Of a stretch of 64,000 bases of DNA, positions 5,461-50,567 are shown one piece after another. Where the stretch lies: IMG/VR virus record IMGVR_UViG_3300020180_000003, positions 14-64,013 of that record. The stretch is one strand, 5' to 3'. Source of the DNA: a virus. Lineage: Duplodnaviria > Caudoviricetes. Position 1 is the first letter of the stretch. Each line of letters begins with the position of its first letter. Made by a program: the position numbers and the translations under genes. The notes under the pieces were generated by a model, which saw only the letters and a program-made list of their open reading frames with translations, did not search any database and was not told the DNA's origin.

Positions 5461-6705
5461 ATGACTATCGAATTTAAGGAGTTGGGCACCCGCGAATTGT
5501 GGGAACAGTTCCAGAGAAAACCGATTGACATCTACAACACGGTTGCCAACCGTATGTTGGAGTCAGGTATCGAAGACACGCCGACATTAAGCCGCGCGCT
5601 TGAGGAAATCAGCCCCAGCCAAAAAGGCGACCAGTTGGATACCTTCGAGCGCCTTATGTTGGAAGCCGGTATTCGCACGCAATCAGATGCCACGGCAGGC
5701 TATTGGGCTAGTAACGCCAGTGCCTTCACACGCAACGCCGGGACCAAGGCGCTGTTGACCGAATTCGTGGCACGCAACTGGCGCAAAGTTAGTTACGGCA
5801 TGAGTCAGCATCGTGCCACCTTTCTGAGCAATGATGGCGTGACCGGCTCATGGGAGCGGCCCTATTCCGACGCAATGGGTATTCGGCCTAGCGAACGGAT
5901 TGCGCCCGCTATTCCGTTGAACGAACTGATCAGCATGACCACGGCCATCGACAGCGATACCTATCGCAGCTATTTCCTGACCTACGATGCCGAGGCGCTG
6001 CGCAAATATCGCGTTGGTGAAACTGCCGACATTCCGATTGCCAAACTGACCGGCGGGGACACTTCGATCCGCCTGCACAAATACGGGCGTGGCATTCAGG
6101 CATCCTACGAGGATTTGCGCCGAATGCGTGTCGATAAACTCGCCTTCTATATCCAATGGATGGCGCTACAAAGTGAAATCGACAAAGTTTCGGCCGCCAT
6201 GACTGTGCTGATTAATGGTGACGGAAATGCAAGCACCGTGCCGACCACACACAATCTGACTACACTGGACACCGCCGCGACGGCTGGCACGCTCACCCTA
6301 AAAGGCTGGCAGGCCTTCAAATTTAAGTTTGTCAATCCGTACATTGTGACCACGGCCCTCATGCAAGAGGCGGTTGCGCTGCAATTGGCACTGCTGAATA
6401 CCGGATCGGCCAACATTCCACTGGCGACCGTGCCGGTTGGGCAAGGTGGGCTGGGCACTGGCCTAACACCAATCAATCAATTTGCTGATACCGTGCGCTA
6501 CGGCTGGACCAGTGACGCACCGGCGTTGAAGATCGTCGCCTTTGACAGTCGTTTCGCCTTGGAACGTGTCACAGAAATCGGCAGCGAGATCAGTGAGTTC
6601 GAAAGATTTATCACGAATCAGACGCAGATTATGACAATGACTGAGGTAGAGGGATACGCAGTAAGTGACGGCGCTGCAACTAAAATTCTCAATGTGAACG
6701 GCTAA
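5461..6705 (+). CDS. Major capsid protein
   Basis: 414 aa, position, KYGRGIQASYE segment typical of HK97-fold MCPs, strong RBS. Confidence 0.8.
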   Translation: MTIEFKELGTRELWEQFQRKPIDIYNTVANRMLESGIEDTPTLSRALEEISPSQKGDQLDTFERLMLEAGIRTQSDATAGYWASNASAFTRNAGTKALLTEFVARNWRKVSYGMSQHRATFLSNDGVTGSWERPYSDAMGIRPSERIAPAIPLNELISMTTAIDSDTYRSYFLTYDAEALRKYRVGETADIPIAKLTGGDTSIRLHKYGRGIQASYEDLRRMRVDKLAFYIQWMALQSEIDKVSAAMTVLINGDGNASTVPTTHNLTTLDTAATAGTLTLKGWQAFKFKFVNPYIVTTALMQEAVALQLALLNTGSANIPLATVPVGQGGLGTGLTPINQFADTVRYGWTSDAPALKIVAFDSRFALERVTEIGSEISEFERFITNQTQIMTMTEVEGYAVSDGAATKILNVNG

Positions 6706-15390: not shown

Positions 15391-18056
15391 TGGCTACACT
15401 TACCGAAGCTAATTTTCGCATGTGGATTGGCCCACATCATACACATATCAACTGGTCAACGCTCAATCTTGGCGCGTCTTTCGTGCCTACCACCACGACC
15501 ACCACCGGCCAAATTAGTGGCGCAACATCACTGGTGTTGGCGTCTGCCACCGGCGTCACCGTACCAGGTGGCGCATGGGTGGGGCCAAACGGCAGTGGGC
15601 AGGGTTGGGAATATGAGCAGATCTTGTCTGGCGCGGGCAATACGAAAACAGTCGTTCGAGAATCAATTACCGACCGCGAGCATAACGGCATCCATACGAA
15701 CGGTGCCGCCGTGCATCAATGGTATCCCGGCACCACGAATGACGGCGTGCTGAGCGCTACTGACGAATGTGACGACACGGTGACGACCATCACCTATCGC
15801 GCTACTGTGTCCGGTGTGCGTGCCCCGCAGCACGTCTTACGCAACGGGCATGTCGTTGTAATTACCACATCCACTGATGGCGGCGCGTACACAATCGCGC
15901 TACTTGGCTTTGTGGACTCACCGACGATCACCGACGACATGTACAACAACGCCGAATGGACGCTGAACATTATTTCAGCGGCAGGGCTGGCGGCAGAAAT
16001 AGAAGCGAATGGTGTGCGGGTTGGTGATGCTGATTTGGCTGATGCCGGTAACGCGTCATCCTCGCAGGAACTCGTGCTAGCCTTTGACGAGCGCGCCAGT
16101 GGCGACTACACAGCCGCTGCGCCAGATTTTAGCGCCGCCAGTGCTGTCGATAATGACCTATCGACACTCTGGATTGCTGAGCACTACACTGGCACAGACA
16201 TTTGGAGCACCACAGCGAACAGCGATCCGGAAAATGGCTACCCGCTGCGCTTCTCACAAATCTACATCAATCCACCAGCTAGCGCGCCACCTGGAGCGAA
16301 GTTTATTGAGTTGGCAGTCGTGTCATCGTTAAATGTCGTTGGCTATAACATTTATAGTGCCAACGGGGCGCTACCTTTGGCCGCGTGGTATTTCAAGGGG
16401 CCGGGCGATCTAGAGCCGCGTGCGCGGATTATTCTAGCGGAGGATGCGGCCGTATTCAGTCAGATGAATCCACTAGCCGAGACAGCAGCCATCTACGAGA
16501 ATAAAATATTCTTCGCAGGCATCCAATCGAGTGGCGGTGAATTTTGGTTGCGCTTTGGGCCAACAAATTCGTGGCAAGCGCGCGTGCGCTGGGGCGATGG
16601 CAACGGGCTTGTCGATCATGAGGACTCGCCGTCTAGATCATGGACAGGTTCTACGCTGACTGTACCAGCGTTAGGCCAGACGATGCGTTATCTATTCAAC
16701 CACACAACAGGCACCGCATCAGCCTACTGGCAGACAGGCATGGTGCGTCACGCTGGCTATGATGTGGATGACGACGATCCGATTTGGATACTAAACACGC
16801 TGCCGGGATTGGGCTTGACGCTAGCGCAGGACATTTCATCTGCTCTGACGGGTGCCGGGAAAATCTACATCAACGGCCCCGATGATAAATACAGCACGGA
16901 CGGATTGCCGCCATCTGGCAATGTGATGATTGGTGATGAAATTATTTTCTATGGAGCGAAAACCACCGAATATCTCACCACCCTCACGCGTGCTAATTCG
17001 AGTACAACAGCAGCCGCGCACAAGGCCAAAGATGAGGTATTCGTCCTTGACGGCAGCACACCGACTGACGCCTATCTGATTAAAGAGATCGGGTGGGAGC
17101 GTTCCAACGGCACGATCTACCCAAAGAATTTCGTTGTACGTGCTTCAAATCTGATCAACACACCACGCACGCCGGACCAGGACAATTACACAGACGATTA
17201 TCATCTTGGCTATAGCGGAACTGACAACACTGCCGCAAGCTGGTCAGTACCGCTCTATGGGCAGCGCGTCAAGCATGTATTGATTGAGATCCTCAGCATG
17301 ACGACGAACCCAGCGCGCCCGCGGCTGAATGAGATCAACGCGATTGTCGATCCGGCATTGCACAATCCAGATTTGTGGTTAGCGTCCGGTACGACTGCCG
17401 GCGCATTGATTCAGAAGGTTCTAGAAATGGCAGGAATTCCCTCCGGTGCCATCTCGCACAGTGGCACGCCCGCGATTGCAAATACCGTCACCGCCGATGA
17501 GAACACATGGACCGTCGTTACAGATCTGGCTGAGTATAGCGGGTGTCGCATTACGGTGACACGCGATAGCAAATTCGTCATCACCGCCGATACCTTCTGG
17601 ACGGGCACGCCGTCCATTCTCACAACCTGGAATCGCACCAGCGCGGTCAGCGTAATGCAATCATTCAGCAAAGGCACGCCGGTATCGCAGGTGATATTAC
17701 CGTGGAAAACGCCTAGCGGTGAAGCTGATGGCAAAATTTACTATCCAGAAATGCCGGGGCGCGGTACCAAGCTAGAACAGCCGGAAACACTATACGCGTC
17801 CGAAGCAGCGGCCACGAGTGCCGCGCGGCGTCTCTATTTTATGCGTCTCTACCCGTTTGAGTCAATGGTAACGGCCTCCGGCAGCGTACCAGACAAGCGC
17901 GCTGGCGAGGCACATCAGCTTGTCTGGCAGTTTGCCGATGATATGCAGTCGCTAGATAGGCTGTGTGTTTGTATGTCGGCAGAACACAGACTAGAAAAAG
18001 GCAGTTGGAGCAGCACTTTTAGATTGCGCCAGTACGGGCACGAAAGCAACTTATGA
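15390..18056 (+). CDS. Tail tip/baseplate hub protein
   Basis: About 888 aa beta-rich protein after the distal tail gene; coupled TGATG start. Confidence 0.6.
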   Translation: MATLTEANFRMWIGPHHTHINWSTLNLGASFVPTTTTTTGQISGATSLVLASATGVTVPGGAWVGPNGSGQGWEYEQILSGAGNTKTVVRESITDREHNGIHTNGAAVHQWYPGTTNDGVLSATDECDDTVTTITYRATVSGVRAPQHVLRNGHVVVITTSTDGGAYTIALLGFVDSPTITDDMYNNAEWTLNIISAAGLAAEIEANGVRVGDADLADAGNASSSQELVLAFDERASGDYTAAAPDFSAASAVDNDLSTLWIAEHYTGTDIWSTTANSDPENGYPLRFSQIYINPPASAPPGAKFIELAVVSSLNVVGYNIYSANGALPLAAWYFKGPGDLEPRARIILAEDAAVFSQMNPLAETAAIYENKIFFAGIQSSGGEFWLRFGPTNSWQARVRWGDGNGLVDHEDSPSRSWTGSTLTVPALGQTMRYLFNHTTGTASAYWQTGMVRHAGYDVDDDDPIWILNTLPGLGLTLAQDISSALTGAGKIYINGPDDKYSTDGLPPSGNVMIGDEIIFYGAKTTEYLTTLTRANSSTTAAAHKAKDEVFVLDGSTPTDAYLIKEIGWERSNGTIYPKNFVVRASNLINTPRTPDQDNYTDDYHLGYSGTDNTAASWSVPLYGQRVKHVLIEILSMTTNPARPRLNEINAIVDPALHNPDLWLASGTTAGALIQKVLEMAGIPSGAISHSGTPAIANTVTADENTWTVVTDLAEYSGCRITVTRDSKFVITADTFWTGTPSILTTWNRTSAVSVMQSFSKGTPVSQVILPWKTPSGEADGKIYYPEMPGRGTKLEQPETLYASEAAATSAARRLYFMRLYPFESMVTASGSVPDKRAGEAHQLVWQFADDMQSLDRLCVCMSAEHRLEKGSWSSTFRLRQYGHESNL

Positions 18057-21000
18057 CCTCAGCGACATTCAAGCGCAACGCGAAACGAATCAAAGACGCC
18101 ATCGCTGCCAAGACTGAGCCGAAGCAGACCACATCCATAGCGGGTGCAGTCGGTGGAACAAAACTGTTCATCGGCGGGCAAATATTCCCAGGCTCTATCA
18201 CAGGCACGCAGGAAGTTGTCAACGCAGGCCGTCCAGCGGCGGCGTCCTATGTGGCAAAAAATGGTGGCGGTGGCGGCAGTGTTTCCGTAAGTAGCGGTGG
18301 CGGAGCAGCATCTGTTTTGCCAACCACCGTGTATCTGCCGCGTGACGGCTCATTGTCCATGACTGGCAGTCTGGACATGGGCGAAAATAGTATTATCAAT
18401 GTTCAACGCGTAGACGGGCGCGACTTGCAGGCTGATGGCGTTATCCTGGACGGCATGAAAAACGCCGATGTGTTGGTGCTGACCGCCAACGCCGATTACA
18501 CGAATGAGCGCGTGTTGACTTTCAGCGCAGCTTTTACGACCGTGGATTCAGGCGCAAATAACGCATACACTGTTAGCATTGTGACGCCGCCAACATTGTC
18601 AGTTTCCTCAACCAACAACGGCACCACACGGTCCCATGCGATTACTACGTCAAGTAACCCGGGGGCGGCGGCTAGTATCCTGGCATCCAGTGCCGCGGGC
18701 ATGTTGACGCTACCAACATTCACGGCCAGCACGAAAGTGCGCACGCCACTACTGGATACGGCGTCAGGCAATATGACGATACAGCCAGCCGGTAATTTGA
18801 TTATCCGTGCTGGCGTCGGTGTTAGTCCGATTGCGCTTATTCCGTTTGAGCGTGATGCCGTATCCGAAACACGCATTGGATCGGATGACTATGCTAGCCA
18901 AACGACAGGCTGGGCAATCGAGCATTACGGCGGGGGTGACTTCCGCTATCTCTACACTGACGAAATGCACGCGAAGGTATTCATTGCCGATTTGGAGCAA
19001 GCGCTAGCCGGTGGGCAGATCATTGCCAAGTCGGTGACGTTGCTGTTCCTTGTGTTTACGGCTCCGGCAGCGGGTGGCACTACAACATTGACGGTTCGCG
19101 ATTTGCCTAGCGCCACGGGGATGGCCGTCTTTCAAAATGGCGATATGATTCGCCTGCGCAACTTTAGCCGTGCTGGTGGTAGCCTGGACATTTCCGATTG
19201 TTGGGGTATTGCCACGCTCGATACTAGCTATGGGACAGGCGGTTTCGACTCTACCACCAAATCGCAACGATACACCTTTGTGCGATCTAGCGGTAGCTAT
19301 GCGGGCCACATGACGACGGGGACTACAGTGCAGCCGGAAAGTATTGTACTGGACTACGGCATCAGTGGCAATGGCTACTATGAAGTCAATGCGATTGATG
19401 GTTACTACGCTGCCAACTCACCTTACGCGCAAATCGTAACCTGGACGGTTCATCCCGCAGCTACGGCACCAGGAACCGGGCTAAAGATAAAGGCGCGTCT
19501 TGGCAACCTAGTAGGCATTACCGATGTTAACCTAAACCCTACGGGCTACGGGTTGTATTCTGAGAATACCTATTTAAAGGGCGACTTTCTCACCGGCGAT
19601 GGTGTGATTCGCATGTACAACGCGACCGGCATCAATATTCTACAAGACGTGTGGAGCAGTTGGGACAACAAGCGCGCTGTGCAATGGTGGCCTGATATTA
19701 CGAGCGTGTCCGGCGATCCATCGTTGAGTATCTACACCGGCAAGGTTGTCGGCGGCTTTACAGCCAATCAGAATTTCAGTTATATCGACGCTAATCCAAC
19801 GGGCAATGTTTTGGCTGGGCTATCACTCTCGGCGTTCGGACAAGGTACGGCATCGGATGCCATTGTCTACATTGAAGGCGGGAGTCAGTCGCTTGGCACG
19901 ACACCGACAATTACACTGACGGCGACGACTATCGAAGCGGTTGGCACACTCGCCATCACCGGCAACATCACCGTCACGGGCACTGTTGACGGCGTGGACA
20001 TATCCGCATTTAAGGCAACTTACGATAGTCACACCCATGACAGCACGTATCTAAAATTGATTGGTGGCACGCTGACCGGCACCTTGACCAGTCGTACGGT
20101 GGCACCATCAGCGAACAATACCTATGATATTGGTACAACCGGCAACTACTTTAATTATGCCTATATCCGTAATCTCGTAGTCGATACGGTGGTCGGCACG
20201 CCTACCTATAGCCATACCCATGCAGCCGGTGACATTACCAGTGGCACGCTGGCATCTGCAAGAATCCCCGACCTCTACGTTTTGACGGCGGGCGACACAA
20301 TGAGCGGCGCTCTGGTCATCGATGCAGACACCGGCACCACATCCAATTATGTGCGCTGGCTGACACAGACATCAACTGGCAAAGCCTGGGACATGATCGG
20401 GCGCGCTCACGACTACGCCACTAGCGCACAGCAGAACGACCTACTACTGACCTACTACGATGGCGCAACCATTTACGTTGCGCTGCAATTCGACAGCGGT
20501 ACGCGGGTGGCTGATTTCCTCAATACGCCAACGGTTGCAGGCACGGCGGTCAGTCTGTCCACGCATAATCACGACGCGGCTTATGTGCCGGTAGCGCGCA
20601 CTGTCACTGCTGGAGCGGGATTGACTGGCGGCGGCTCTCTCTCTGCTAATATCACCATCAGCCATAACGACACAAGCACTCAGGCATCCGTCACAAACAC
20701 CACTTCGCTTATTCGGGATGTCACGCTCGATACATACGGACACGTCACCGCGCTTGTCTCCGCGACTGTCCTATCAATCGCTCCCGAATTGCATCTTGGT
20801 GCTAGTTCCACAGCCGGAACATTGGACTGGAATGACGTGTCCAACACAAAGCCCAATAGCGGAAGCACCCTTCTGAGGGGGACTGCGGCTAACGCGATGG
20901 GCGGATTGGGTTATTATCACCCTATCAACTTTGAGTATGCCACAAAGAACGGCACGGGCAACGTCACGCAATGGGCAGTGCCCTACAGTAATGATTCATT

Positions 21001-23581
21001 AAATTCTGGATTTTATTACCGAGGTCGGTTTTCGGGAACGTGGTCGAGTTGGTACAAAATGTGGTCCGAGACAAACGATGGTCACGGTAGCGGATTAGAC
21101 GCCGATACCGTTGACACCATTCAGGGCGCGAGTATTGTCCAGATCACACGTCTCGTGTCTGCGGGAAGTGGCTTGACGGGTGGCGGCGCACTGTCTGCTG
21201 ATATTACACTGAGCCTCGCCACGCCTGGTTCATTGACTGTTTCTACAACGAACAGTGCAGCAGCGCATACACACGCGATCACATCGTCGGCGGCACCTGG
21301 TGCAGCGGCGTCCCTGCTTGCCTCGTCTGGCGCTGGCATGTTGACACTACCGACATTTACGGCTACAACCAAAGTTACGACGCCGCTAATAGACACAGCA
21401 AGTGGGAACTTGACACTGACCCCCGCGGGCGGCACCGTAACCGTAACAGGCGCGGGCACGTTCACGACCAAAGTCACATCGCCACTAATTGACACAGCGA
21501 GCGGTGATCTGCAACTACTTCCAGCAGGGGGCAGGGTGGGCATCAACCGCGTGCCCAGTGGCGCTGCGCTCGATGTGATTGCCGACAACAACGCCGATCA
21601 TACGCAACGCATAAAGCAAAAAAGTGGACAGACGGGCCGATTATGGCGTATTGAGGACACGACCAGCAATGAGTTGATTGTCCTCGATAGTGTTGGCAAT
21701 CTACAGAGTGGCAGCCCCGGCTTTGCGTCCGGTCTCACTGGTTGGCAAATTACGCCGTGGGGGAAGGCGGAATTCAACGACGTGTGGGTGCGTGGCGAAT
21801 TGCACGCGTCCATATTCGTCATGGATGAGTTCCACGCTTCGGGCGGCACGCTATTTGTGTCACCGGCGGGCAAGCTGGAAAACGACGCGATTATCAACGT
21901 CACCACCGGCATAGAATCCATAATGGATATCCGCACCACATCGGCATCAGGTAGCGGCACACAAGTCACGATTCGCACCACATCGGCATCGGGTAGCGGC
22001 ACGCAGATTACAGCGCGCTGGATTGGAAACTATTTCGACATAACCGATCCTCCATCGGGGCACGCGATGATTTTCCAGCCCGGAGATGTGATCCGCTGCA
22101 AGGCGCTCGGTATGGGTGTAGGGATTGACCTGTGGGACATCTGGGGAACGATCACCGCAATCGAGGACGTGACGGACTATTATCGTTATTTCTTCACACG
22201 TGAAAACGGCGGTAGCCAGGGTGTGGTGATTCCGTCCGGCACCGCCATCGTGAGTTATGGAGCGGAGGGTGATGGGCGCATTTTGATTACCGCTGACCAG
22301 AACTATGCGCCATATATTGATATTTTCACCAGCGGCAAGAAACCGTGGATTGGTGAGATTGTCCCACATGTGCGCCAGGGTCGTTTGGATGGGGTGGGCC
22401 TACCTGGGGTGAGCGGCGTCGAGCAGTATGGCATGGTAGGCAGTACGAATTTAGCCAATGCGAACTCGCCTTACTTCATTATGTCGAATCTTCAAATGGC
22501 GATGTACAAAATCAATAGCCGCTGGAATGATGGAGCAAACGACACGGTACAGATTGAAGCGAATGGACGCGTTCGCTTTGGCACGAACATCGGGCAGTCT
22601 GCAACGACCGGCTTTGATTTTGAGCCAAGTACCGGCGACCTGACGATCGGGTCTCCGTCCTATGCAGGTAACGTCACGATATACGGTCAGATATTCCTGC
22701 CGGACGGCTCACCGGCGGGCGTCGTGTGGCGCGGCGCATGGGCTGCTACCACAAACTACGAGAAAAATGATACAGTCAGTAATGGCGGCAAAAGTTACAT
22801 TTGTATTCTAGCCCATACGAGCGGTGGCAGCTTCCCCGGCATTGGCGCAAATTGGGATCTGATTGCCGACCAGGGCACGACAGGCTCAACGGGATCGACA
22901 GGCGCTACAGGATCACCAGGCGCTACAGGGGCGACGGGGCCAGCCGGTGCGGACAATCAGGATTTCCCCTTCCTTGAGGCGAACTCAGCCGCGATGGTGG
23001 GCAAGGCAGCGGGCCTGTATATGATAAACACGCACCTGGGCTACTGGAATGGCACATCCTTCAACGCCTATATCGACAATGGCGGAAATTTCCGTTTCGG
23101 GCAATCAGGCAGCGCGTACGTGGGCTTTGATGCATCCACGGGTCTATTGCTAGGCAAAGACAGCAGTAGCGTTACACAGTGGTATGCTAGTAGTACCGAT
23201 GGTAAATTTCGAGCCGGGGCGGGGGCTATCGTTATCGACAGGGGTGGTATCCATGTCGCCAATAGTGGCGTATCCAACGGTATCGTTATGTACAACATTG
23301 ACACTTTCACCAATGCAAACAAGGCAGGGCGACTGTGGGCACTGAGTGACCTAGGCCGACAAGTTTATCTGACGGCTGGACGTAGCACAGGCGACAGCGA
23401 CGCCACGAATGCCACAGGCATTCTCAGTCTATTTGCCTACAACGGCAGCGGAAACCCTGGGGCGGGGTTGGTGTTGACAGGTGGCACAGGGATAATTTCA
23501 GTTACTGGCGACCTCGATATAAACGGATACGACATAATCGAAGCGAATAACATGGTAGGAGTAAGAACAACAGCATGGTAA
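18053..23581 (+). CDS. Large tail fibre / host-specificity protein
   Basis: 1842 aa, Thr/Gly-rich, HTH/HNH metal-binding motifs, collagen-like GXT stretch, internal duplications. Confidence 0.8.
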   Translation: MTSATFKRNAKRIKDAIAAKTEPKQTTSIAGAVGGTKLFIGGQIFPGSITGTQEVVNAGRPAAASYVAKNGGGGGSVSVSSGGGAASVLPTTVYLPRDGSLSMTGSLDMGENSIINVQRVDGRDLQADGVILDGMKNADVLVLTANADYTNERVLTFSAAFTTVDSGANNAYTVSIVTPPTLSVSSTNNGTTRSHAITTSSNPGAAASILASSAAGMLTLPTFTASTKVRTPLLDTASGNMTIQPAGNLIIRAGVGVSPIALIPFERDAVSETRIGSDDYASQTTGWAIEHYGGGDFRYLYTDEMHAKVFIADLEQALAGGQIIAKSVTLLFLVFTAPAAGGTTTLTVRDLPSATGMAVFQNGDMIRLRNFSRAGGSLDISDCWGIATLDTSYGTGGFDSTTKSQRYTFVRSSGSYAGHMTTGTTVQPESIVLDYGISGNGYYEVNAIDGYYAANSPYAQIVTWTVHPAATAPGTGLKIKARLGNLVGITDVNLNPTGYGLYSENTYLKGDFLTGDGVIRMYNATGINILQDVWSSWDNKRAVQWWPDITSVSGDPSLSIYTGKVVGGFTANQNFSYIDANPTGNVLAGLSLSAFGQGTASDAIVYIEGGSQSLGTTPTITLTATTIEAVGTLAITGNITVTGTVDGVDISAFKATYDSHTHDSTYLKLIGGTLTGTLTSRTVAPSANNTYDIGTTGNYFNYAYIRNLVVDTVVGTPTYSHTHAAGDITSGTLASARIPDLYVLTAGDTMSGALVIDADTGTTSNYVRWLTQTSTGKAWDMIGRAHDYATSAQQNDLLLTYYDGATIYVALQFDSGTRVADFLNTPTVAGTAVSLSTHNHDAAYVPVARTVTAGAGLTGGGSLSANITISHNDTSTQASVTNTTSLIRDVTLDTYGHVTALVSATVLSIAPELHLGASSTAGTLDWNDVSNTKPNSGSTLLRGTAANAMGGLGYYHPINFEYATKNGTGNVTQWAVPYSNDSLNSGFYYRGRFSGTWSSWYKMWSETNDGHGSGLDADTVDTIQGASIVQITRLVSAGSGLTGGGALSADITLSLATPGSLTVSTTNSAAAHTHAITSSAAPGAAASLLASSGAGMLTLPTFTATTKVTTPLIDTASGNLTLTPAGGTVTVTGAGTFTTKVTSPLIDTASGDLQLLPAGGRVGINRVPSGAALDVIADNNADHTQRIKQKSGQTGRLWRIEDTTSNELIVLDSVGNLQSGSPGFASGLTGWQITPWGKAEFNDVWVRGELHASIFVMDEFHASGGTLFVSPAGKLENDAIINVTTGIESIMDIRTTSASGSGTQVTIRTTSASGSGTQITARWIGNYFDITDPPSGHAMIFQPGDVIRCKALGMGVGIDLWDIWGTITAIEDVTDYYRYFFTRENGGSQGVVIPSGTAIVSYGAEGDGRILITADQNYAPYIDIFTSGKKPWIGEIVPHVRQGRLDGVGLPGVSGVEQYGMVGSTNLANANSPYFIMSNLQMAMYKINSRWNDGANDTVQIEANGRVRFGTNIGQSATTGFDFEPSTGDLTIGSPSYAGNVTIYGQIFLPDGSPAGVVWRGAWAATTNYEKNDTVSNGGKSYICILAHTSGGSFPGIGANWDLIADQGTTGSTGSTGATGSPGATGATGPAGADNQDFPFLEANSAAMVGKAAGLYMINTHLGYWNGTSFNAYIDNGGNFRFGQSGSAYVGFDASTGLLLGKDSSSVTQWYASSTDGKFRAGAGAIVIDRGGIHVANSGVSNGIVMYNIDTFTNANKAGRLWALSDLGRQVYLTAGRSTGDSDATNATGILSLFAYNGSGNPGAGLVLTGGTGIISVTGDLDINGYDIIEANNMVGVRTTAW

Positions 23582-31327: not shown

Positions 31328-32698
31328 TCAGTCACCCCCAGCCGCGCGGCGTGGCAGACGAATAATTTTGGTATCGACAACGGGCTCGATCCGATCCAAT
31401 GCCTGATTGATTTTTGCCGTCCAGGTATTCCCCGCAAATGGCTTGCCAAACGCTGCTTGTGACGCCGCGCTTTTGCTCATGCCAGGAACCCACACGCTGC
31501 GCAATCTAGCCACCATTCTGCTGATCTCATCCTCTACTGACGGCTCTACTGACGGCTCTACTGACGGCTCTACTGACGGCTCTACTGACGGCTCTACTGG
31601 TGGCTCTACCGCACTGCTCACACGAGTGAAAACAGGAAATTCCTGTGCAGTAGAGAAAGCAGTAGAGGTCACACCACGCCACTTGCGCCCAATGCGCGTA
31701 ATCAATGATTCGCTGGCTACTTCATCCAACAGGTACGACTGGTAGCGGATGCAATCCAGGCCCGTGACATACAAAAACGCACCTTTGCCGGGCAACAGTT
31801 CGGCGTGCGTGCCCGGCCGGCCGGCTGCACAACTGGCGGCGCTTGCATCAGCGACCAACCCAACACACCGCGCTGAGAAATTATTTTTGATGGTTGAATC
31901 GCCCATCGCTTTGCCGGTCGGATGCTGGGTTGCAACCAACAGATTGATGTTGGCAGCTCGTCCCTTGCATACCAGTTCACCAACCAAACGCATACAATCA
32001 GCGTCGGCGGTCAGGTCGGCGTACTCGTCGATCACAATCAACAGGCGGGGCATGGCGACACGTTTAGCCTGTCGGCGTGCCATTTCATTGACGGCATCGG
32101 CAAGCACGGTTGAGGCACGGCTAATGGTTGTCGCCAGTACAGTGGCATGGGGCAATCTAGCCAGTGGCACAAGGTCAGTATTCTTCATATCGATCAACAG
32201 AATCCGCAGATCGTCGGGCGACGTATTCCAGCACAATGGCAATAACATATTCAGCATTGCCACACTCTTGCCCGCGCCGGTTGTGCCTGCTATCAGGACA
32301 TGCGGCGCATCGCTGAAACTGTGCCATAGGTCACGCGCCGCGCCGTCGTATGTGCGTCCCAGTAGCATCGAATGTGGTTCGCCGGTCAACGCTTCGGCAT
32401 TCCATAGCAGCGGCTTGCGGTGTGGATGTGTCACCTCCAACCGCAACGGGTGACGCAACAGGCGCACCAGGGTTTTCGTCCGGCGCTTGTTGCTGATAGA
32501 TTCGCTAATCTCCGGTAGGCGGCGCTCGATGTCGCTAATCGCCTGCCCTGCGACGGCACGCAGGCCGTAGATGACAAGCTGATCGCCGCCGACCACGGCC
32601 CAGGCTGGTTTCGTTCCGGCTTTCAGTTTGAAAGCTCGGAGCGTGGCGTTGATTGCCGAAATTTCCGACAGCAGATGTTGGCGTAGTTTGTCGTTCAT
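31328..32698 (-). CDS. FtsK/SpoIIIE-family ATPase (DNA translocase)
   Basis: APHVLIAGTTGAGKS, LIDMK, LLIVIDEYADL, GRAANINLLVATQHP. Confidence 0.92.
   Translation of the reverse strand: MNDKLRQHLLSEISAINATLRAFKLKAGTKPAWAVVGGDQLVIYGLRAVAGQAISDIERRLPEISESISNKRRTKTLVRLLRHPLRLEVTHPHRKPLLWNAEALTGEPHSMLLGRTYDGAARDLWHSFSDAPHVLIAGTTGAGKSVAMLNMLLPLCWNTSPDDLRILLIDMKNTDLVPLARLPHATVLATTISRASTVLADAVNEMARRQAKRVAMPRLLIVIDEYADLTADADCMRLVGELVCKGRAANINLLVATQHPTGKAMGDSTIKNNFSARCVGLVADASAASCAAGRPGTHAELLPGKGAFLYVTGLDCIRYQSYLLDEVASESLITRIGRKWRGVTSTAFSTAQEFPVFTRVSSAVEPPVEPSVEPSVEPSVEPSVEPSVEDEISRMVARLRSVWVPGMSKSAASQAAFGKPFAGNTWTAKINQALDRIEPVVDTKIIRLPRRAAGGD
31531..31609. repeat. 12-bp tandem repeat (VEPS)n in the FtsK linker
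   Basis: (ctctactgacgg) x about 6. Confidence 0.9.
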
Positions 32699-33219
32699 GC
32701 TCCGGCCTCCTCTGACTTGCTGCGTGGCTTGCGCTTGCGCCGGTTAGCCTGTTGCTCTTTGGCCGTGGCCCATCGGCAATTACCCGGGCTGTACCCTTTG
32801 TCATTGTCGATACGATCTATGCTCTTACCTGGTGGCCGTTCCCCCATGTCTGCGTAGAAATTCGCAAAGCTAGTCCAGCGTTCGCAAACGGCTATGCCGC
32901 GTCCCCCGTAGTCGGCATATTGTTTGTGGTTTGAGTTAGTGCAGCGCTGGATCACATGTGCCCATGTCACGTAAGTGCTGGTGCCGGTCAGCCCGTGCGT
33001 GGTGCTGCGCTCGGTGCTGCTCTCGATACGGCGCTCGGCATTAAGACAGCCACATCTGCGCGTAGCCCCGCCTTGCAGGTTGTCACCCCTCACTGTGGTC
33101 TCCTGTCCGCACTCACATCGACACACCCAGCGGGCATTGCCGCTACTGGCATTCGCCGCCCTGCTGATGACGGTCAACCGGCCGTGGTTTTGGCCGGATA
33201 TATCAATTAGCTTTGTCAT
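32695..33219 (-). CDS. HNH homing endonuclease-like protein
   Basis: GRLTV..WVCRCECG, YGGRGIAVCERW, SIDRIDNDKGYSPGNCRWAT..Q..N. Confidence 0.9.
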   Translation of the reverse strand: MTKLIDISGQNHGRLTVISRAANASSGNARWVCRCECGQETTVRGDNLQGGATRRCGCLNAERRIESSTERSTTHGLTGTSTYVTWAHVIQRCTNSNHKQYADYGGRGIAVCERWTSFANFYADMGERPPGKSIDRIDNDKGYSPGNCRWATAKEQQANRRKRKPRSKSEEAGA

Positions 33220-33434
33220 AGTGTCACCTTGCGCGGGAACGTAGCCACCGCGAACACGGCTGTAAGCGCCAGGCCAACCCATAAAGTCGTTGGGATAGCC
33301 ATAATGGACACCGCGACGGCCACCACGGCCACGATAAGCAGAGTGACAAGCAGCAGGGCTTGCAGCAACGTAGCCTGCCATGCTGTGGCGTCACGTACAA
33401 CGTGGGACGTTCCAAATACGATAGTCGATAGCAT
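33216..33434 (-). CDS. Small hydrophobic membrane protein
   Basis: MLSTIVFG start with GGAGG RBS. Confidence 0.55.
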   Translation of the reverse strand: MLSTIVFGTSHVVRDATAWQATLLQALLLVTLLIVAVVAVAVSIMAIPTTLWVGLALTAVFAVATFPRKVTL

Positions 33435-33746: not shown

Positions 33747-34001
33747 CTATTCGCCATGATTTCCCCCCCGACTATAGCGCTGCTTGATATGGCTAGCTAT
33801 CCCTAGCAGGCGCAACGATTCAGTATATTCATTGCCGGTGAACTTGGTTGCCAGTGCCCCGGCATTCAGCGACGTAATGTCTCCATCTTTGCCGACAATT
33901 GCACGTAACTTGTGGCCGACTCTAGTCGATAGCCGCACAGCGCAATGCGCCTGTATGCGCCGGTACACTTTTTGGCACTGCGTAGGCTCCGGTCGGTTCA
34001 T
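33747..34001 (-). CDS. Hypothetical protein
   Basis: Coupled (ATGA) to the upstream ORF. Confidence 0.5.
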   Translation of the reverse strand: MNRPEPTQCQKVYRRIQAHCAVRLSTRVGHKLRAIVGKDGDITSLNAGALATKFTGNEYTESLRLLGIASHIKQRYSRGGNHGE

Positions 34002-34258
34002 AACTGTTTTGCCTTATCCGCAGTCAGTGCCGCCATCTGTGCATGTAACCGCATTAGCTCACCCTCTAGGCTTTTCAGTCGCCCCCCTAGTCCTTGTACC
34101 ATCAGGCGCAATGACTCAACGTCCAGGCCCGTTACATCCTGCCCGGCGTCAATCGAGCGTAGCAGATTAGACAGGTAGTCGCCCCTTTTGCGCTCACCTC
34201 TGGCCAACTTGTTGAGTAACTCCCCGATCCCATCGTCTACCGACAGGTTTAGACGTTC
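33998..34258 (-). pseudogene. RHH (CopG-like) gene apparently lacking its start, abutting the last CRISPR repeat
   Basis: Frame reads ERLNLSVDDGIGELLNKLARGERKRGDYLSNLLR from the first base after the repeat; in-frame TAG inside the repeat. Confidence 0.55.
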
Positions 34259-34470
34259 CCCCTAACCCCTGCGCGTGTGGGGCGACCGTTTGCCCCGGCC
34301 AATGACAATTCCTGTGCAGCCCCTAACCCCTGCGCGTGTGGGGCGACCCTCGATACGTTGTTCGTGGTTCTGCAACGTTGCCCCTAACCCCTGCGCGTGT
34401 GGGGCGACCTGTTTCCAGGTCAACGAGTTTGGCAGACGCATCCCCTAACCCCTGCGCGTGTGGGGCGACC
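34259..34470 (-). CRISPR. Mini CRISPR array: 4 identical 29-bp repeats, 3 spacers of 32 bp
   Basis: Repeat (minus strand) GGTCGCCCCACACGCGCAGGGGTTAGGGG at 34259-34287, 34320-34348, 34381-34409, 34442-34470; unique spacers; 61-bp period as in type I-E. Confidence 0.97.
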
Positions 34471-34597
34471 CCTATTACGGCAGTCACCCGCAAGGTTATC
34501 CACGCTTACAGGGTTCCTAGTTCATCGGCGCACTATCGTGCTGTCCTCCCTAGGCCATTTTAACGACCACGGTGTAGGTACTCCCGCAGTCGGCGCA
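34471..34597 (-). ncRNA. omegaRNA/tracrRNA-like scaffold with anti-repeat
   Basis: Stems CGACUGCGG/CCGUGGUCG, CCUAG/CUAGG, GCAC/GUGC; segments AACCCUG..GCGUG and GGGUGACU complementary to the repeat. Confidence 0.75.
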
Positions 34598-35770
34598 TTA
34601 GGCTGCGCTTGCCAATCTAACGGCCTCATTGCGAATATTGATTGCAGCGTTGCCGTCTCGTTCGTGTTCAGCCCCACAATCAGGACAAGCCCAGGTTCGT
34701 ATTGACAATGGCAGTTCCTTGACCTTTTCACCACAATTAGAACAGGTCTTGCTGCTGGCGAACCAGCGATCTACAGCGATGACCTTGCCGCCAACAGAAA
34801 TAGACTTGTATTGCAACTGTAGGCGCACTTGATACATGCCTGCATCGCTGACGGCTTTGGCTAATCGGCGATTCTTGACCATGCCTTTGATATTCAGGTC
34901 TTCCACTCCAATCAATCCATATTCGCCAACGATTTCCGTTGTCATCTTATGGGCATTATCCCTGCGAACGTCAGCAATGCTTGCATGTAGCTTGGCAATT
35001 TCCAGTTTTCGCTTTTGGTAGTTTCTCCCCTTCACGTCTGCATCACGCATTCGCTGAAACGACCGTTGCAGTTTTGCGAGCTTGCGTTGATGTTGTTTTA
35101 GCGCCTTGGGGTTGCGATAAACCACCCCGTCGCTAGTGACGGCCCGATACCTGATTCCCATATCAATCCCGACCGTCTTCGATATGTCGGCGGTCTGTTC
35201 AAGGTCGGCGACTTCGGACTGTACGGCAAGATACCAGTACCCGCCCGTGTAGCTGACGCGTCCGCCCAATACTTTCCCTTCAAAGCGCAAAGGTTCGGCC
35301 ATATTAACGGCCCCGTCTGGGCAGCGTGAAATCATGACGCCGTGACCGTCAAACTTCATTCCGCCATTGTTAGCAAGTCCAAAGGACGGCGTTACCTTGT
35401 CGCGTGACTTGAAGCGCGGCCAACCAAACGGCTTCCCGTCCTTGCGCGGTTTCCAGCCTACTGGTGCCTTCAAGGTGCCTTTTTTCCTTAGATCAAAGTA
35501 TCGGCTGATCGAAGATTGTAAATCTTGAAAGGCGTACTGATTGGCGTAGGTTTGTACTTCTGCCACAAAAGGTGCAAATTCTTCCTGATTGCGCCGACGA
35601 TTAAACTCCTTCTTTAATTCTAGAATTTTGGGCTTCTCGCCACGTGTTAACCCGTTGTTGTATTCAGCCAACGCCCAGTTCCATGTAAAGCGGGCGATTC
35701 CTGCGCACTGCCAAAAGTAGCGAGCCTGTTCGTCAGTTGGGTTCAATCGTATTCTGTGCGCCCGAATCAT
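34598..35770 (-). CDS. tnpB: TnpB-family RNA-guided endonuclease (Cas12-like, CRISPR-associated)
   Basis: N-terminal HTH (IRLNPTDEQ), RuvC-I GIDMG, RuvC-II VEDL, Zn finger CSNCG/CPDCG, RuvC-III RDGNAAINI; catalytic D-E-D intact. Confidence 0.95.
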   Translation of the reverse strand: MIRAHRIRLNPTDEQARYFWQCAGIARFTWNWALAEYNNGLTRGEKPKILELKKEFNRRRNQEEFAPFVAEVQTYANQYAFQDLQSSISRYFDLRKKGTLKAPVGWKPRKDGKPFGWPRFKSRDKVTPSFGLANNGGMKFDGHGVMISRCPDGAVNMAEPLRFEGKVLGGRVSYTGGYWYLAVQSEVADLEQTADISKTVGIDMGIRYRAVTSDGVVYRNPKALKQHQRKLAKLQRSFQRMRDADVKGRNYQKRKLEIAKLHASIADVRRDNAHKMTTEIVGEYGLIGVEDLNIKGMVKNRRLAKAVSDAGMYQVRLQLQYKSISVGGKVIAVDRWFASSKTCSNCGEKVKELPLSIRTWACPDCGAEHERDGNAAINIRNEAVRLASAA

Positions 35771-35831
35771 CTAGAACTCCTATCCACAATATCGCCAGAA
35801 TGACTGTATGCCACCTAGATTTGATTTTATA

Positions 35832-36050
35832 CTATATTGCCGTGTATTCCGGTGTTGCGCTTGTTTCTAGCGCCTCTATGCGCTGTTCATGATTATCTAG
35901 TCGTTTCGCAATTGAGTCGTGGTGTCGATAATCACGAACAAACATTTCCACCAACGCGGCGCGTCCTTTGGTGCCTTCCACTTTACAAATCTTATCCATT
36001 GCATCTATCGTCTGTTGAGATAATCGCAATGACAAAGGTTTATTTGCCAC
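35832..36050 (-). CDS. RHH-type DNA-binding protein
   Basis: GTG start with GGAGG RBS; KPLSLRLSQQTIDAMDKIC...RAALVEMFV. Confidence 0.7.
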   Translation of the reverse strand: MANKPLSLRLSQQTIDAMDKICKVEGTKGRAALVEMFVRDYRHHDSIAKRLDNHEQRIEALETSATPEYTAI

Positions 36051-36089
36051 ATCGCCTCCGTAGTCCGTTCGTATCACCATTTGGGCTAC

Positions 36090-36119
36090 ATTCTAACACG
36101 ACTCCATCCCCCGTGTCAA
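36090..36119 (-). promoter_or_regulatory. Sigma70-like promoter for the RHH-tnpB-scaffold-array unit
   Basis: TTGACA-N18-TAGAAT with TG extension. Confidence 0.65.
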
Positions 36120-36529
36120 GCACCAGTTTTCAATGGTGTCCGTTCTGTGCGGTTGTAGCATTCGTTGATGCGCGCCCGCAATGTTTCGCGCTCGGCATCG
36201 CTCAGTCGGAGCCAGGGTCGCACGCTTTGAGCGATGGTCGTTTCGATACGCGGTGCGGGGCGTTTCTCTGGGCGTGGCGACGCTCTGGCTTTTTTGCGCA
36301 GTGGCGGCTGGCGCGGCGTCCCGGCAATCTCCTGCTGTGTGCGGCGTTTCACGCAACCGCAACTCCGCACTTTGCCTTTAACAATGTCGGCGGCGGCCAC
36401 GTTGCGCGTACCGCCACAATCGCAGAGGCATTCCCAGAGGATGCCGCCGCTTTTGTTTTTGCCGACCACGCGCACGGCTACCAGTTTCGTCGATCTCATC
36501 CCTGCTACGTTCAATGACTGCCTGATCAT
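36116..36529 (-). CDS. Protein with HNH-endonuclease-type N-terminal Cys domain
   Basis: LWECLCDCG...VRSCGC resembles the N-terminus of 32695..33219. Confidence 0.55.
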   Translation of the reverse strand: MIRQSLNVAGMRSTKLVAVRVVGKNKSGGILWECLCDCGGTRNVAAADIVKGKVRSCGCVKRRTQQEIAGTPRQPPLRKKARASPRPEKRPAPRIETTIAQSVRPWLRLSDAERETLRARINECYNRTERTPLKTGA

Positions 36530-37137
36530 TTCGTTTGCCCCTTTCGATACAATTTGAAACAATTACTACACATCGTTGTCAGCGGCCACGCCCGTCGATC
36601 CCTGGCCGTCTGCGCTGTCACCCACTGCGCTTGCACCGACCGACCGCAAAGGCCCACGGTGCCCATATCGCGGCTGATGTGGATACGTGCCCCATTTCGC
36701 CCGATTAGCGCCCATTGCGGAGGCGCCGGAGGACAGACGCAGCCGTTGATGCACCCGCAGTCAGAACACACGATATCGGCGGCGGGTAGCTGTTCGCCGT
36801 AGACGTACCACGGCGCCGCAGCTAGTGTTTCGATATCGGCCAACACTGGCGCAAACTCCATGGAGCGGCCCACATTGTTGGCCGCGAATAGGCCGCATAA
36901 CATTTCGGCATAATGCCGGCTCGCGATCGGATCGGGCCCAACCGGGATGACTGGCACACACCGGCCTGGATGTTGGGCATTGGTGTAGCGTCGGCCCTCC
37001 TTCTCCAGCGACGTACCGCCACTAATTGCCGACAGAGGCCAGCGAATTTCGACAATCCAGAACAGCCGGTGCAATTCGTTCTGACGAGATGCCCCGGCGA
37101 TGACTTTGCGCTGGAAGGTGTTAGTCTGGGTTGACAT
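36526..37137 (-). CDS. Hypothetical Cys-rich protein
   Basis: Coupled ORF. Confidence 0.55.
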   Translation of the reverse strand: MSTQTNTFQRKVIAGASRQNELHRLFWIVEIRWPLSAISGGTSLEKEGRRYTNAQHPGRCVPVIPVGPDPIASRHYAEMLCGLFAANNVGRSMEFAPVLADIETLAAAPWYVYGEQLPAADIVCSDCGCINGCVCPPAPPQWALIGRNGARIHISRDMGTVGLCGRSVQAQWVTAQTARDRRAWPLTTMCSNCFKLYRKGQTK

Positions 37138-40509: not shown

Positions 40510-41156
40510 GGTTTTCTACTTCTCTCAGGAATGCGTCATAGCATTCTAGCATCCATTCAGTGTCAACGTGTTTAGCTAGATAGCGGCCAGCAGCGGCGGG
40601 GTCTGTGGGTAGCTGATAGCGCCGCGTCTTGTCTGGGTCAATGATCCCGGCTGCAATGGCGGCGGCTCTTGCGCTGCGATATTCGCCCCGCTTCATTCCT
40701 TCCAAGAATGTCCGGATTATCGCGGGCTATGCGGGCGGTCAGGTATTTGGCGTTATCACCTCTTTGTTTAATCGAATCAAGGTGATAATCATTACCTTGA
40801 TTATTGCATTCATCCAACTGTCTGTCGCCACCATTTACCGCTAATGGCTGCGCAGTCTCGGCCAGCGTCTGCGTTGTCTTGCGCTGAGTGACTTCAATGT
40901 TTATGGATATCTTAGTCTTGCCCAGCCCGCTAGGCGGCGGCGCTGCACAGAATTCATCGAAGGAAGAAAAGCCAAGTGCTTGGTAGCCAGACTTTTCTTC
41001 CATCAGCTTGATCATGCCTTCGAGGTGATCCGCGCTACTTTCCACATTGTGAAGGGCAGACAAGATTTCTCCTTTTACTGCCACTGCCCAAGATCGGCTA
41101 CCTGGCTTTGCAGCTAGGTCGCCAACCTCATCCATTGTGATTGTTCTGTTGGACAT
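40496..41156 (-). pseudogene. Single gene split by a +1 frameshift near 40705
   Basis: ...YLTARIARDNPDIL continues as EGMKRGEYRSARAAAIAAGI in the next frame. Confidence 0.6.
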
Positions 41157-41221
41157 TGACCGGGTACCTTTTCTGCAAATACGCCCACACCGCACCGAGT
41201 TCACTTTCGGTCATAACGTTC

Positions 41222-49347: not shown

Positions 49348-49596
49348 ATGAATGGAAAATTGCCACCACCAGTTTGGGAAGATGGCTACCCAGCCAATCT
49401 GTCCGCCACAATCGAGGATTCTCTGATGTGGATGAGGGCGCACCGAGACTACATCGCCACTATCTGTCGAATCAACCGCAGTGCTAAGGCGAGCATCGCT
49501 GATAATCTGCAGCGCATAGAGCAATGCATCGAGTTCATGGAGTCCTACCTACCAGACGCGGAAAGCCACATCGAGAAAATCATCGAATCAGCCTAG
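49348..49596 (+). CDS. Hypothetical protein
   Basis: GAGGA RBS. Confidence 0.5.
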   Translation: MNGKLPPPVWEDGYPANLSATIEDSLMWMRAHRDYIATICRINRSAKASIADNLQRIEQCIEFMESYLPDAESHIEKIIESA

Positions 49597-49742
49597 TCGC
49601 TTCACGGTCGCCGCCGCCTGCAACATGCTGCAACGTCGCACCCCGCAGGCTATCGACCATCAATCCACCGGCGAAGGCGGGCAGTCGGGTAGCTCACACT
49701 CTTATTTGGAACGAGCCTGTTCTGGTCCAATCAAGGAAAATC

Positions 49743-50567
49743 ATGAACAACAAAACCAATGGTATGCGCGCAAACCTAGCTGGCGCAAACCTATGGGGTA
49801 AAAACCTAGTTGGCGCTAACCTAGTCGGTGCGAAACTGCGGGGCGCTGATCTAGGGAGCGCTTTGCTGGATGGCGCGAATCTGCGGGATGCGGATCTAGG
49901 GGGCGCTTCTCTGTGGAATTCTCGCCTAGAGGGTGCCGATCTAAAAGGTGCCAATCTAGTCGGTACCGATCTAGTCGGTACCATTCTGACGGGTGCAAAT
50001 CTAGAGGGTGCCAATCTGTCGGGTGCCAATCTGGAAGGTTCGGATCTGACGGGTGCCAATCTGGTCGGTGCCAAGCTAGTTGGCGCTAACCTAGTCGGTG
50101 CGAAACTACGGGGCACCAATCTGGAGTGTGCCAATCTGTTCGGTGCCAATCTGGAGGGTGCCAATCTGGAGTGTGCCAATCTGTTCGGTGCCAATCTGGA
50201 GGGTGCCAATCTGGAGTGTGCCAATCTGGAGGGTGCCAATCTAGTCGGTGCCAATCTGTCGGGTGCGGATATGTCGGGCGCGGCTCTAGAAGGTTCGGAT
50301 CTGACGGGCACTGTTCTAGAAAATGTCAAAAATATTATTATAGCGGGTACCGATCCCCGCGGGCATCTATTCTATGGCTCCATTGACAAGAACGGATGCC
50401 TGATCGTAAAAGCCGGTTGCCGGAAATTCGCTGGCGTGGATGCTGCGAATATGCACTGGCGGGTTCGACATCATGACGATCCAGTACTCCACGCGGCTTG
50501 CCTGGATCTGGTTAGTGAGATCGAAGAAAAAGCTGCTCGCAATGGGTGGCAGCTTAACCCCAATTAG
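49743..50567 (+). CDS. Pentapeptide repeat protein
   Basis: Long A(N/D)LxG tract (15-bp repeats); C-terminal VKAGC domain. Confidence 0.95.
   Translation: MNNKTNGMRANLAGANLWGKNLVGANLVGAKLRGADLGSALLDGANLRDADLGGASLWNSRLEGADLKGANLVGTDLVGTILTGANLEGANLSGANLEGSDLTGANLVGAKLVGANLVGAKLRGTNLECANLFGANLEGANLECANLFGANLEGANLECANLEGANLVGANLSGADMSGAALEGSDLTGTVLENVKNIIIAGTDPRGHLFYGSIDKNGCLIVKAGCRKFAGVDAANMHWRVRHHDDPVLHAACLDLVSEIEEKAARNGWQLNPN

Follow-up and report, generated by a model that had tools for sequence, protein, structure and literature searches.

How does a TnpB nuclease, which in IS200/IS605 elements takes a single guide from the transposon flank, come to stand in front of a CRISPR array in a phage genome, and would it use that array? 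The question is raised by a locus of the IMG/VR virus record IMGVR_UViG_3300020180_000003 (Duplodnaviria; Caudoviricetes), a 64,013-bp record with direct terminal repeats that is classed as 100% complete. The stretch of DNA that we analyzed, hereafter the window, spans 64,000 nt (positions 14 to 64,013 of the record) and is nearly the whole of it. On its minus strand, from 36119 down to 34259, a promoter-like site, a small ribbon-helix-helix (RHH)-like open reading frame (ORF), a tnpB gene, a 127-nt non-coding segment and an array follow one another. Our comparisons indicate that this locus is probably a domesticated, non-mobile TnpB that takes several guides, that is, an intermediate of the TranC (transposon-CRISPR) or type V-U-like kind. 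The central result, which we draw from sequence comparison, is that the repeat of the array appears to be the terminal module of the TnpB omegaRNA scaffold.

The array (34259..34470, minus strand) comprises four identical 29-nt repeats of the sequence GGTCGCCCCACACGCGCAGGGGTTAGGGG, at 34442-34470, 34381-34409, 34320-34348 and 34259-34287, which enclose three unique 32-nt spacers at 34410-34441, 34349-34380 and 34288-34319. It lies on the same strand as tnpB (34598..35770, minus strand), the distance from the tnpB stop codon to the first repeat is exactly 127 nt, and we found no terminator-like site between the two. These four repeat copies are the only ones in the 64,013-bp record. The first-pass annotation of this DNA, made from the letters and a list of ORFs, had described a promoter, an RHH gene, a TnpB, a 127-bp segment and the repeats and spacers. 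This anatomy proved accurate to the base, the RHH gene being its weakest item, as its family match is below threshold.

The evidence on the repeat comes from a homologue named here L141, whose TnpB is 44% identical to that of the window. The L141 genome carries a second, orphan copy of the scaffold that is 99% identical to the first over 94 nt. Immediately past ...TATG(C/T)GGGGTGAGG(A/G) the two copies are unrelated, and this divergence therefore marks the boundary between scaffold and guide. The same boundary motif terminates the single repeat-like unit of the homologue L140 and the repeats of the window and of the homologues L061, L224 and L226; the repeats end in ...GGGGTTAGGGG in the window, ...AGGGTGAGGG in L061, ...GGGGTGAGGG in L140, ...GGGTCAGGGG in L224 and ...AGCAGGGG in L226. 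Therefore, each spacer of these arrays starts where a TnpB guide starts. The orphan scaffold copy lies at 1500-1598 of contig L223 (minus strand; genome G404), some 1.3 kb from the L141 tnpB, and is followed by a different guide. In the genome of L140, the repeat-like 27-mer was found only as itself.

The scaffold is also recognizable on its own. Downstream of tnpB in 15 Chloroflexota relatives we found a conserved RNA of about 175 nt that ends in ...GTAGCAG and past which the copies diverge. In its structure 92% of the cells are paired, 20 of the 32 pairs are changed on both sides, and none of 500 shuffles did as well. A covariance model built from these 15 omegaRNAs, with the window excluded, matched 34466-34633 when 1 kb was searched with the filters off (16.1 bits, E 7e-5), with helices 1-4 in place and helices 5 and 6 unpaired. 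This match bears out the omegaRNA-like scaffold that the first-pass annotation had proposed. Moreover, an alignment of the scaffolds of the window and its relatives shows covariation in helix 1. In the window, repeat 1 ends 156 nt past the stop codon. Seventeen relatives were measured for comparison, and the scaffold extends to 150-160 nt past the stop in 12 of them, is longer in two (202 nt) and shorter in three. Altogether, sequence and structure indicate homology between the 127-nt segment and the omegaRNA scaffolds of TnpB relatives. The omegaRNA-type scaffold would thus occupy 34471..34633 (minus strand), consisting of the last 36 nt or so of tnpB and the intergenic segment (34471-34597).

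Within this scaffold, a candidate anti-repeat, CCTTGCGGGTGAC (34483..34495, minus strand), could pair with nucleotides 2-8 and 16-21 of the repeat. In the helix formed with repeat nucleotides 2-8, comparison of the window with L140 shows changes in both partners of four of the seven pairs. The helix is not evident in the unit that lies downstream of tnpB in L226. Four bases of the repeat tail could pair with the loop of helix 1 and recur in the loop just before repeat 1; by our reading both copies vary together, being TAGG in the window and TGAG in L140. We also noticed that the C-terminal tails of longer homologues seem to translate a repeat-like module, a back-translation made by eye that we did not count as evidence.

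The nuclease itself is a TnpB of the ISDra2 type and of full length. The 390-aa protein matches the Pfam families OrfB_IS605 (2.8e-24), Cas12f1-like_TNB (6.5e-21) and HTH_OrfB_IS605 (8e-16), and the NCBIfam model guided_TnpB for the RNA-guided endonuclease TnpB family (269 bits against a cut-off of 100). The best PADLOC models were Cas12u4 (2e-70) and a Cas12f model (1e-66); we judge both models to be very TnpB-like and do not expect them to discriminate. The closest solved structure by sequence is ISDra2 TnpB, which aligns almost end to end (E 4e-46; residues 4-387 against 6-376 of 408). LaTranC (9jfo), the sole solved TranC, matches over the C-terminal RuvC part alone (E 4.5e-27), Cas12n-like chains give a partial and far weaker match than ISDra2 TnpB, and solved Cas12f chains match far more weakly still than TnpB does (E 6e-9 to 3e-5). 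Hence, in sequence the protein is nearer to TnpB than to Cas12f. The RuvC residues D203, E290 and D372 and both CxxC pairs of the C4 zinc finger, which had been annotated as intact, are aligned opposite the corresponding residues of ISDra2 TnpB, of which we take the catalytic ones to be D191, E278 and D361.

A search returned 3,157 homologues at E <= 1e-20, the closest genomic ones being from metagenome-assembled genomes (MAGs) and isolates of Chloroflexota, and in a protein scan of the metagenome collection L061 was the sole close relative, the others being about 35% identical. In a FastTree phylogeny of 84 rows, which takes every second or third homologue together with chosen loci, the window falls in a clade of 64 rows with a Shimodaira-Hasegawa (SH) support of 100; its two halves of 32 rows each have supports of 96 and 99. 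Canonical insertion-sequence copies of Chloroflexaceae adjoin this clade in the tree, and the support for that join is low (30). Our DNA sample of the clade comprises seven loci and leaves out close homologues of 55-78% identity. Arrays are present in four of the seven (the window, L061, L224 and L226), a single unit is present in two (L140 and L141), and in the seventh (L005, the same as L225) the contig stops 42 nt past the tnpB stop codon. The arrays have related repeats of 28-29 nt and spacers of about 32 nt, and they occur in different genomic places and arrangements. The first-pass annotation had inferred a TnpB-sized effector, domesticated by a phage and equipped with a multi-guide array. 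Because relatives also have arrays, and with the repeat ending at the scaffold boundary of the clade, this inference holds up, its functional part being read from sequence.

The arrangements deserve a closer description. L061 (84% amino acid identity over the 176 residues present) has at least nine repeats with the 29/32-nt geometry, located upstream of tnpB and of the small ORF that precedes it. L224 (54% identity; a 54.6-kb virus record) has the scaffold and then three repeats downstream of tnpB, again 29/32 nt, at a spacing of 61 nt. L226 (47% identity; an 82.5-kb virus record rated complete) has two good repeats and a degenerate one downstream of tnpB. A further unit of the L226 record (2382-2820, minus strand) is an orphan scaffold, about 100 nt long, that is followed by six repeats and has no tnpB of its own. 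It diverges from the RHH-tnpB operon across a palindromic AT-rich stretch, and the nuclease of that operon would draw guides from it as well. L140 comes from an Anaerolineales MAG, where an actin-like gene of the ParM/Alp type (4488-5471) lies 1.4 kb from the single-copy tnpB, a neighborhood suggestive of a plasmid or prophage.

Beyond this clade, arrays are rare. In 184 of 215 loci fetched, the sequence included the C-terminus and extended at least 400 nt further downstream, and in seven of these a script flagged repeat pairs within 700 nt downstream. We inspected five of these (L035, L110, L115, L124 and L126), and the repeat pairs flagged by the script at L089, L200, L142, L144, L183 and L192 were left uninspected. 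L035, a viral contig with a TnpB 39% identical to that of the window, has at 728-1130 three to four repeats of 37 nt, together with a scaffold and an anti-repeat that can pair with the repeat over 9 bp; a second, orphan scaffold with one repeat is found 2.6 kb downstream, at 3320-3470. On the metagenome contigs L110 (1550-1650), L115 (1700-1800) and L124 (945-1045), which carry the same TnpB (35-39% identical to that of the window), a complete scaffold is followed by a two-repeat array. Its repeat resembles that of the window, the spacing is 62 nt, and the spacer of L110 and L115 differs from that of L124. L126 has another type of repeat. Among 20 further viral loci, repeats were found in L224 and L226 alone. 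When the presence of an array is mapped on the tree, at least three changes are needed, which agrees with the view of repeated origins given in Altae-Tran et al. 2023 (PMC10691335).

No genes that would move the locus or extend its array were detected. A Pfam scan of 83 ORFs covering the genome returned no Cas1, Cas2, Cas6, Cascade, Y1 transposase or serine recombinase at E <= 1e-4, so the earlier statement that none of these genes is recognizable in this phage stands, and a six-frame search of the window genome for Cas1 was likewise negative. None of the four virus records searched contained Cas1, which the same search did detect in 7 of 14 control genomes. A scan of the 83 ORFs and tnpB gave a single ORF of the tnpB type. 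At the nucleotide level, the window and L061 are homologous precisely from the tnpB ATG onward (77.5% over 529 nt), with no conserved left end, and the cassettes adjoin different phage genes, of the HNH type in the window, for a prohead protease in L224 and L226, and for a portal protein in L005.

From these data, we propose the following sequence of events. From one promoter, a single transcript would run through the RHH-like ORF and tnpB into the omegaRNA scaffold and the array. Repeat 1 would supply the terminal module of the scaffold, a short hairpin followed by the tail ...GGGGTTAGGGG, and therefore the scaffold, repeat 1 and spacer 1 would form a natural single-guide omegaRNA. Repeats 2-4 would offer the same guide-adjacent module, with each of the later spacers of the array preceded by a module of its own. 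After processing, the later repeat units may join TnpB with the 5' part of the scaffold acting like a tracrRNA, the later repeats pairing in trans with the scaffold through the anti-repeat. TnpB would then cut DNA that matches a spacer beside a transposon-associated motif (TAM). The likely targets would be competing phages, with superinfection exclusion or homing as the outcome.

Eighteen spacers could be measured (three in the window, eight in L061, two in L224 and five in the upstream array of L226). Fifteen are exactly 32 nt long, which implies insertion of a ruler type, and the remaining three, all from the upstream array of L226, are 33-34 nt. As to their targets, the last spacer of L061 has 16 contiguous matches (20 of 32 in total) inside the window ORF at 40638-41204, a run that none of 300 shuffles reached; this pattern fits a homologous gene in another phage. 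Spacer 2 of L224 (2757-2790 against 4347-4378) matches, at about 29 of 32 positions and with one indel near the 5' end, an intergenic region with a bidirectional terminator upstream of the tnpB of the same record. Both matches fit the targeting of close relatives that spares the phage itself, thin as this evidence is. The L061 array gave no target among GenBank phages. When the spacers were compared across the four virus records, the only matches were of 14 nt and at chance level; IMG/VR was not scanned with single spacers.

Several observations weigh against the reading of the locus as a TnpB that takes several guides. First, the three spacers of the window have no protospacer in the phage itself, in the fetched loci, in plasmids or in three related virus records, and their matches to GenBank phages are at chance level at best (best E 0.7). 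Spacer 2 of L224 could also indicate that spacers are copies of the phage's own DNA, not pieces taken from its enemies. Moreover, the lack of adaptation genes in the four virus records leaves spacers of exactly 32 nt unexplained. Second, the energy of the pairing between repeat and scaffold is at best slightly better than in controls, and unevenly so across the units. The energy of the whole repeat against the scaffold was matched by 101 of 1990 random phage windows and by 44 of 1000 shuffled repeats. When the first 10 nt of the repeat were paired with the shuffled 47 nt upstream, 60 of 1000 shuffles did equally well in the window, 101 in L140, 19 in L224, 34 in the upstream unit of L226 and 521 in its downstream unit. 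The hairpin inside the window repeat has just 4 bp and is weaker than those of L224, L226 and L140 (5-6 bp). Third, with default filters over 94 kb the covariance model had no match in the window, L140 or L141, and with the filters off it still had none in L140 or L141. In addition, the end of the model falls 4 nt into repeat 1, in a register some 25 nt off the one that we favor. We prefer the register given by the boundary because of the point at which the two L141 copies diverge, and because helices 5 and 6 are broken in the alignment of the model.

Part of this evidence fits an alternative in which only the first unit works. The locus would then be an ordinary immobilized TnpB with one omegaRNA, and the other repeat-spacer units would be inert products of duplication or recombination, or scars of repair after RNA-guided cutting. 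The weak statistics of the repeat-scaffold pairing would be expected under this explanation. The same holds for the shortness of the arrays (three spacers in the window and two in L224), for the single units of L140 and L141, and for L224, where a truncated repeat fragment without a spacer follows the third repeat and spacer 2 is a near copy of the record's own DNA. Nevertheless, we regard it as unlikely. All four repeats of the window are identical, and the uniform length of 15 of the 18 spacers points to ruler-type insertion and not to sloppy duplication. Furthermore, at least nine repeats in L061 and six in the upstream array of L226 have been kept with unique spacers, and L226 retains a separate transcription unit of scaffold and array away from the 3' end of tnpB.

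A second alternative concerns the small gene upstream of tnpB. In the window this RHH-like gene spans 35832..36080 (minus strand) from an ATG (82 aa); its likely start is a GTG at 36050 (72 aa), preceded by GGAGG. Its match to Pfam RHH_1 (E 0.007, 16.7 bits) is below the cut-off of 20.5, and only three homologues of the protein were found. L226 has an RHH gene that scores above the Pfam cut-off and overlaps the tnpB start, and L061 has, at 520-708, a Phd/YefM-like ORF of 62 aa (E 1e-5, below the Pfam cut-off) that also overlaps it. Thus, of the four array-bearing loci, three have a small gene of an antitoxin family immediately before tnpB, and in L224 no such gene was found there. The RHH-like protein and TnpB could accordingly be a toxin-antitoxin-like or regulatory module, whose guides would serve addiction or gene regulation in the phage or host genome and not competition between phages. 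A toxin-antitoxin role has been proposed, in the account of Altae-Tran et al. (PMC10691335), for a clade of archaeal RHH/MazE-TnpBs whose catalytic site is rearranged and which have no array. The window resembles that clade, as far as it is described there, in having a small RHH/antitoxin-type gene immediately upstream of an immobilized tnpB with a long 3' untranslated region, and the place of L224 spacer 2 near the record's own terminator might be taken as regulatory. However, the described clade is archaeal, and the window differs from it in its canonical catalytic triad and in its arrays. The small proteins of the window, L061 and L226 have no sequence relation to each other, a pattern more in keeping with interchangeable regulators than with an antitoxin that has co-evolved. 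L224 manages without one, and the spacers of the window match nothing in their own genome. Hence, we find this module improbable as an account of the locus. The RHH-like gene is a putative regulator or inhibitor, and its product would most likely repress the operon or, alternatively, restrain TnpB.

A third alternative assigns the array to the host. TnpB would have inserted beside or into a pre-existing orphan mini-array of type I-E style, which host Cascade would read. Arrays of type I-E have 29-nt repeats, 32-nt spacers and a C-rich/G-rich hairpin; the repeat forms a stable Cas6e-type hairpin and carries a conserved 8-nt handle, and spacers of 32 nt are typical of type I-E/I-F adaptation. 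The window array has the 29/32-nt geometry and a C-rich/G-rich hairpin, and, like virus-borne mini-arrays, it is a short array in a phage in which no cas genes, and hence no genes for adaptation or processing, were detected. The covariance model stops aligning where repeat 1 begins, as though flank sequence started there, and in L110, L115 and L124 a complete scaffold precedes a two-repeat array of similar repeats. Against this, the last 8-10 nt of the repeat are the terminus of the clade's own scaffold and not a foreign handle; in the window the last 8 nt equal the omegaRNA tail. The hairpin looks degenerate in the window (4 bp) and in L061, where it is poor, and has 5-6 bp in L224, L226 and L140. 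Related repeats accompany this TnpB clade into different phages and positions. We did not find any host array with this repeat: its 24-nt core had no exact match in one genome each for 185,579 species, the repeat with up to three mismatches had none in 401 genomes of the phylum of L140 (a sample only), and the exact repeat and a degenerate consensus of two repeats had none in IMG/VR. Rfam includes families of CRISPR direct repeats, and a search of all its families at E <= 1 over 33800-36300 gave no match. The first-pass annotation had named chance adjacency to an array used by host Cascade as the way in which its reading might fail; the absence of the repeat from the genomes searched, together with the arrays of the relatives, makes this very improbable. 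Finally, a mobile IS200/IS605 element is spoken against by the lack of a detected transposase and of conserved ends, by the single copy, and by three spacers where one flank guide would be expected.

The reading of the locus as a domesticated TnpB with several guides places it among systems that have recently been described. According to papers that cite Jin et al., Cell 2025 (bioRxiv 10.1101/2025.09.28.678669, bioRxiv 10.64898/2026.03.27.714800, PMC13565253), TranC systems are transposon-CRISPR intermediates in which the right-end RNA has been split into a tracrRNA and a crRNA; their effectors are TnpB-sized RuvC nucleases of about 300-600 aa, with a CRISPR array and without cas1 or cas2 nearby. 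The window shares with them, as so described, the TnpB-sized RuvC nuclease, the array without cas1 and cas2, and a guide RNA that would resemble a split right-end RNA. A further point of likeness is that the alignment of the window protein with ISDra2 TnpB breaks off at residue 376 of 408. CauTranC9, reported in a 2026 preprint, is close in setting, being encoded in a Caudoviricetes genome by a TnpB-like protein without added domains, with a five-repeat array of 38-bp repeats whose spacers match phages. Hence, the novelty that the first-pass annotation implied for a TnpB-sized CRISPR-associated nuclease does not hold, as such nucleases, including the phage-borne CauTranC9, have been published. 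L035, with its long repeats, may be of the CauTranC9 type (38-bp repeats).

The window clade also differs from the TranC clades for which these papers give figures. Its repeats are 28-29 nt and its spacers 32 nt, against reported repeats of 38 bp in clade 9, 32/36 bp in clade 3, 32-36 bp in clade 11 and 36/38 bp in clade 20, and the window effector of 390 aa compares with a mean of 414 aa in clade 9. LaTranC aligns with the window protein only in the C-terminal RuvC part, whereas ISDra2 TnpB does so over its full length. A small gene upstream of tnpB is found in three of the four array-bearing loci of the window clade, a difference from published clades that we compared by description only. 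Altae-Tran et al. 2023 (PMC10691335) tie 40 TnpB-like branches to arrays that lie downstream, as an omegaRNA does, and propose that such arrays came from serial duplication of an omegaRNA segment or from insertion beside an existing array. As in the type V-U* systems outlined there, the TnpB-like effector of the window is linked solely to a downstream array at the position of the omegaRNA. We conclude that the window locus most probably works like, and is, a member of this TranC or type V-U-like kind.

The remaining comparisons are with systems outside this kind. In domain order, length, catalytic triad and zinc finger the protein resembles ISDra2-type IS200/IS605 TnpB (PDB 8bf8/8exa/8h1j), and the scaffold likewise begins within the last part of tnpB and extends some 155 nt beyond the stop codon. 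Unlike such elements, the window genome has no TnpA and the locus no conserved left end, tnpB is single-copy, and several guides stand behind repeated terminal modules in place of one flank guide. Cas12f differs in that its solved chains match the window protein far more weakly than TnpB does. Orphan mini-arrays of viruses differ in that the window repeat belongs to the guide RNA of the neighboring TnpB and is absent from every host genome searched.

As for the setting of the cassette, the promoter-like site at 36090..36119 (minus strand) is of the sigma-70 type (TTGACA-18 nt-TAGAAT with a TG extension; 11 of 12 consensus positions). It is a consensus match alone, and the whole 2.4-kb region has three such sites against 2.0 +/- 1.3 in shuffles. 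Two genes for HNH-endonuclease-like proteins (PHROG 374), with a Cys-rich N-terminal motif in common, flank the region, at 36116-36562 (minus strand; E 7e-18) and 32695-33381 (minus strand; E 1e-68), and the stretch between them may be a mobile-gene hotspot. Logan contigs of the probable source run break at the array repeats, and the contig from repeat 3 to repeat 1 (34320-34471) has a depth of 55 against 79-83 in the flanks, which could reflect array variants in the population or an assembly effect. The genome has the gene set of a tailed phage, the Pfam matches of its 83 ORFs including capsid and Mu-F-like proteins, FtsK/SpoIIIE, a DnaB-like helicase, SSB, an ERF recombinase, two DNA methyltransferases and a dCTP deaminase. 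We also noted a pentapeptide-repeat protein (49524-50564; E 1.5e-57), a 627-aa protein with an alginate-lyase domain that is possibly a depolymerase (54375-56255; E 3e-43), and an 1842-aa protein with a CBM_5_12 module (18053-23578). A search of IMG/VR for relatives of this phage through its DnaB-like helicase and RHH-like protein returned none. The hosts are probably Chloroflexota of microbial mats.

A bolder picture joins these strands, and we hold it doubtful as a whole. The window clade would be separate from the published TranC clades, and no array-linked nucleases known would be smaller than those kept by its phages (about 380-440 aa). The terminal hairpin and tail of the omegaRNA would double as the 28-29-nt repeat, which a type I-E/I-F-like Cas1-Cas2, acting in trans from the host or from a co-infecting element, would extend in exact steps of 32 nt. 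The phage would thus parasitize host adaptation to arm its TnpB, and stand-alone units of scaffold and array, as in L226, together with interchangeable regulators of the RHH and Phd types, would complete the system.

Altogether, the window locus is a good new example of a published kind and not a new principle. Different stages coexist within the clade, in natural phage genomes: one omegaRNA alone in L141 and L140, a scaffold fused to a short array in the window and L224, and a detached array in L061 and L226. Therefore, the step from a transposon guide to a CRISPR array can be compared inside one protein family. The clade also poses the question of how spacers of near-uniform 32-nt length are inserted when the four virus records searched encode no Cas1. 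If the array is used, few nucleases that a CRISPR-like array programs in nature would be as small as this 390-aa TnpB, which would have needed no added domains for it. For the biology of these phages, the locus would, to judge from its sequence, likely be a weapon in the competition of phage against phage.

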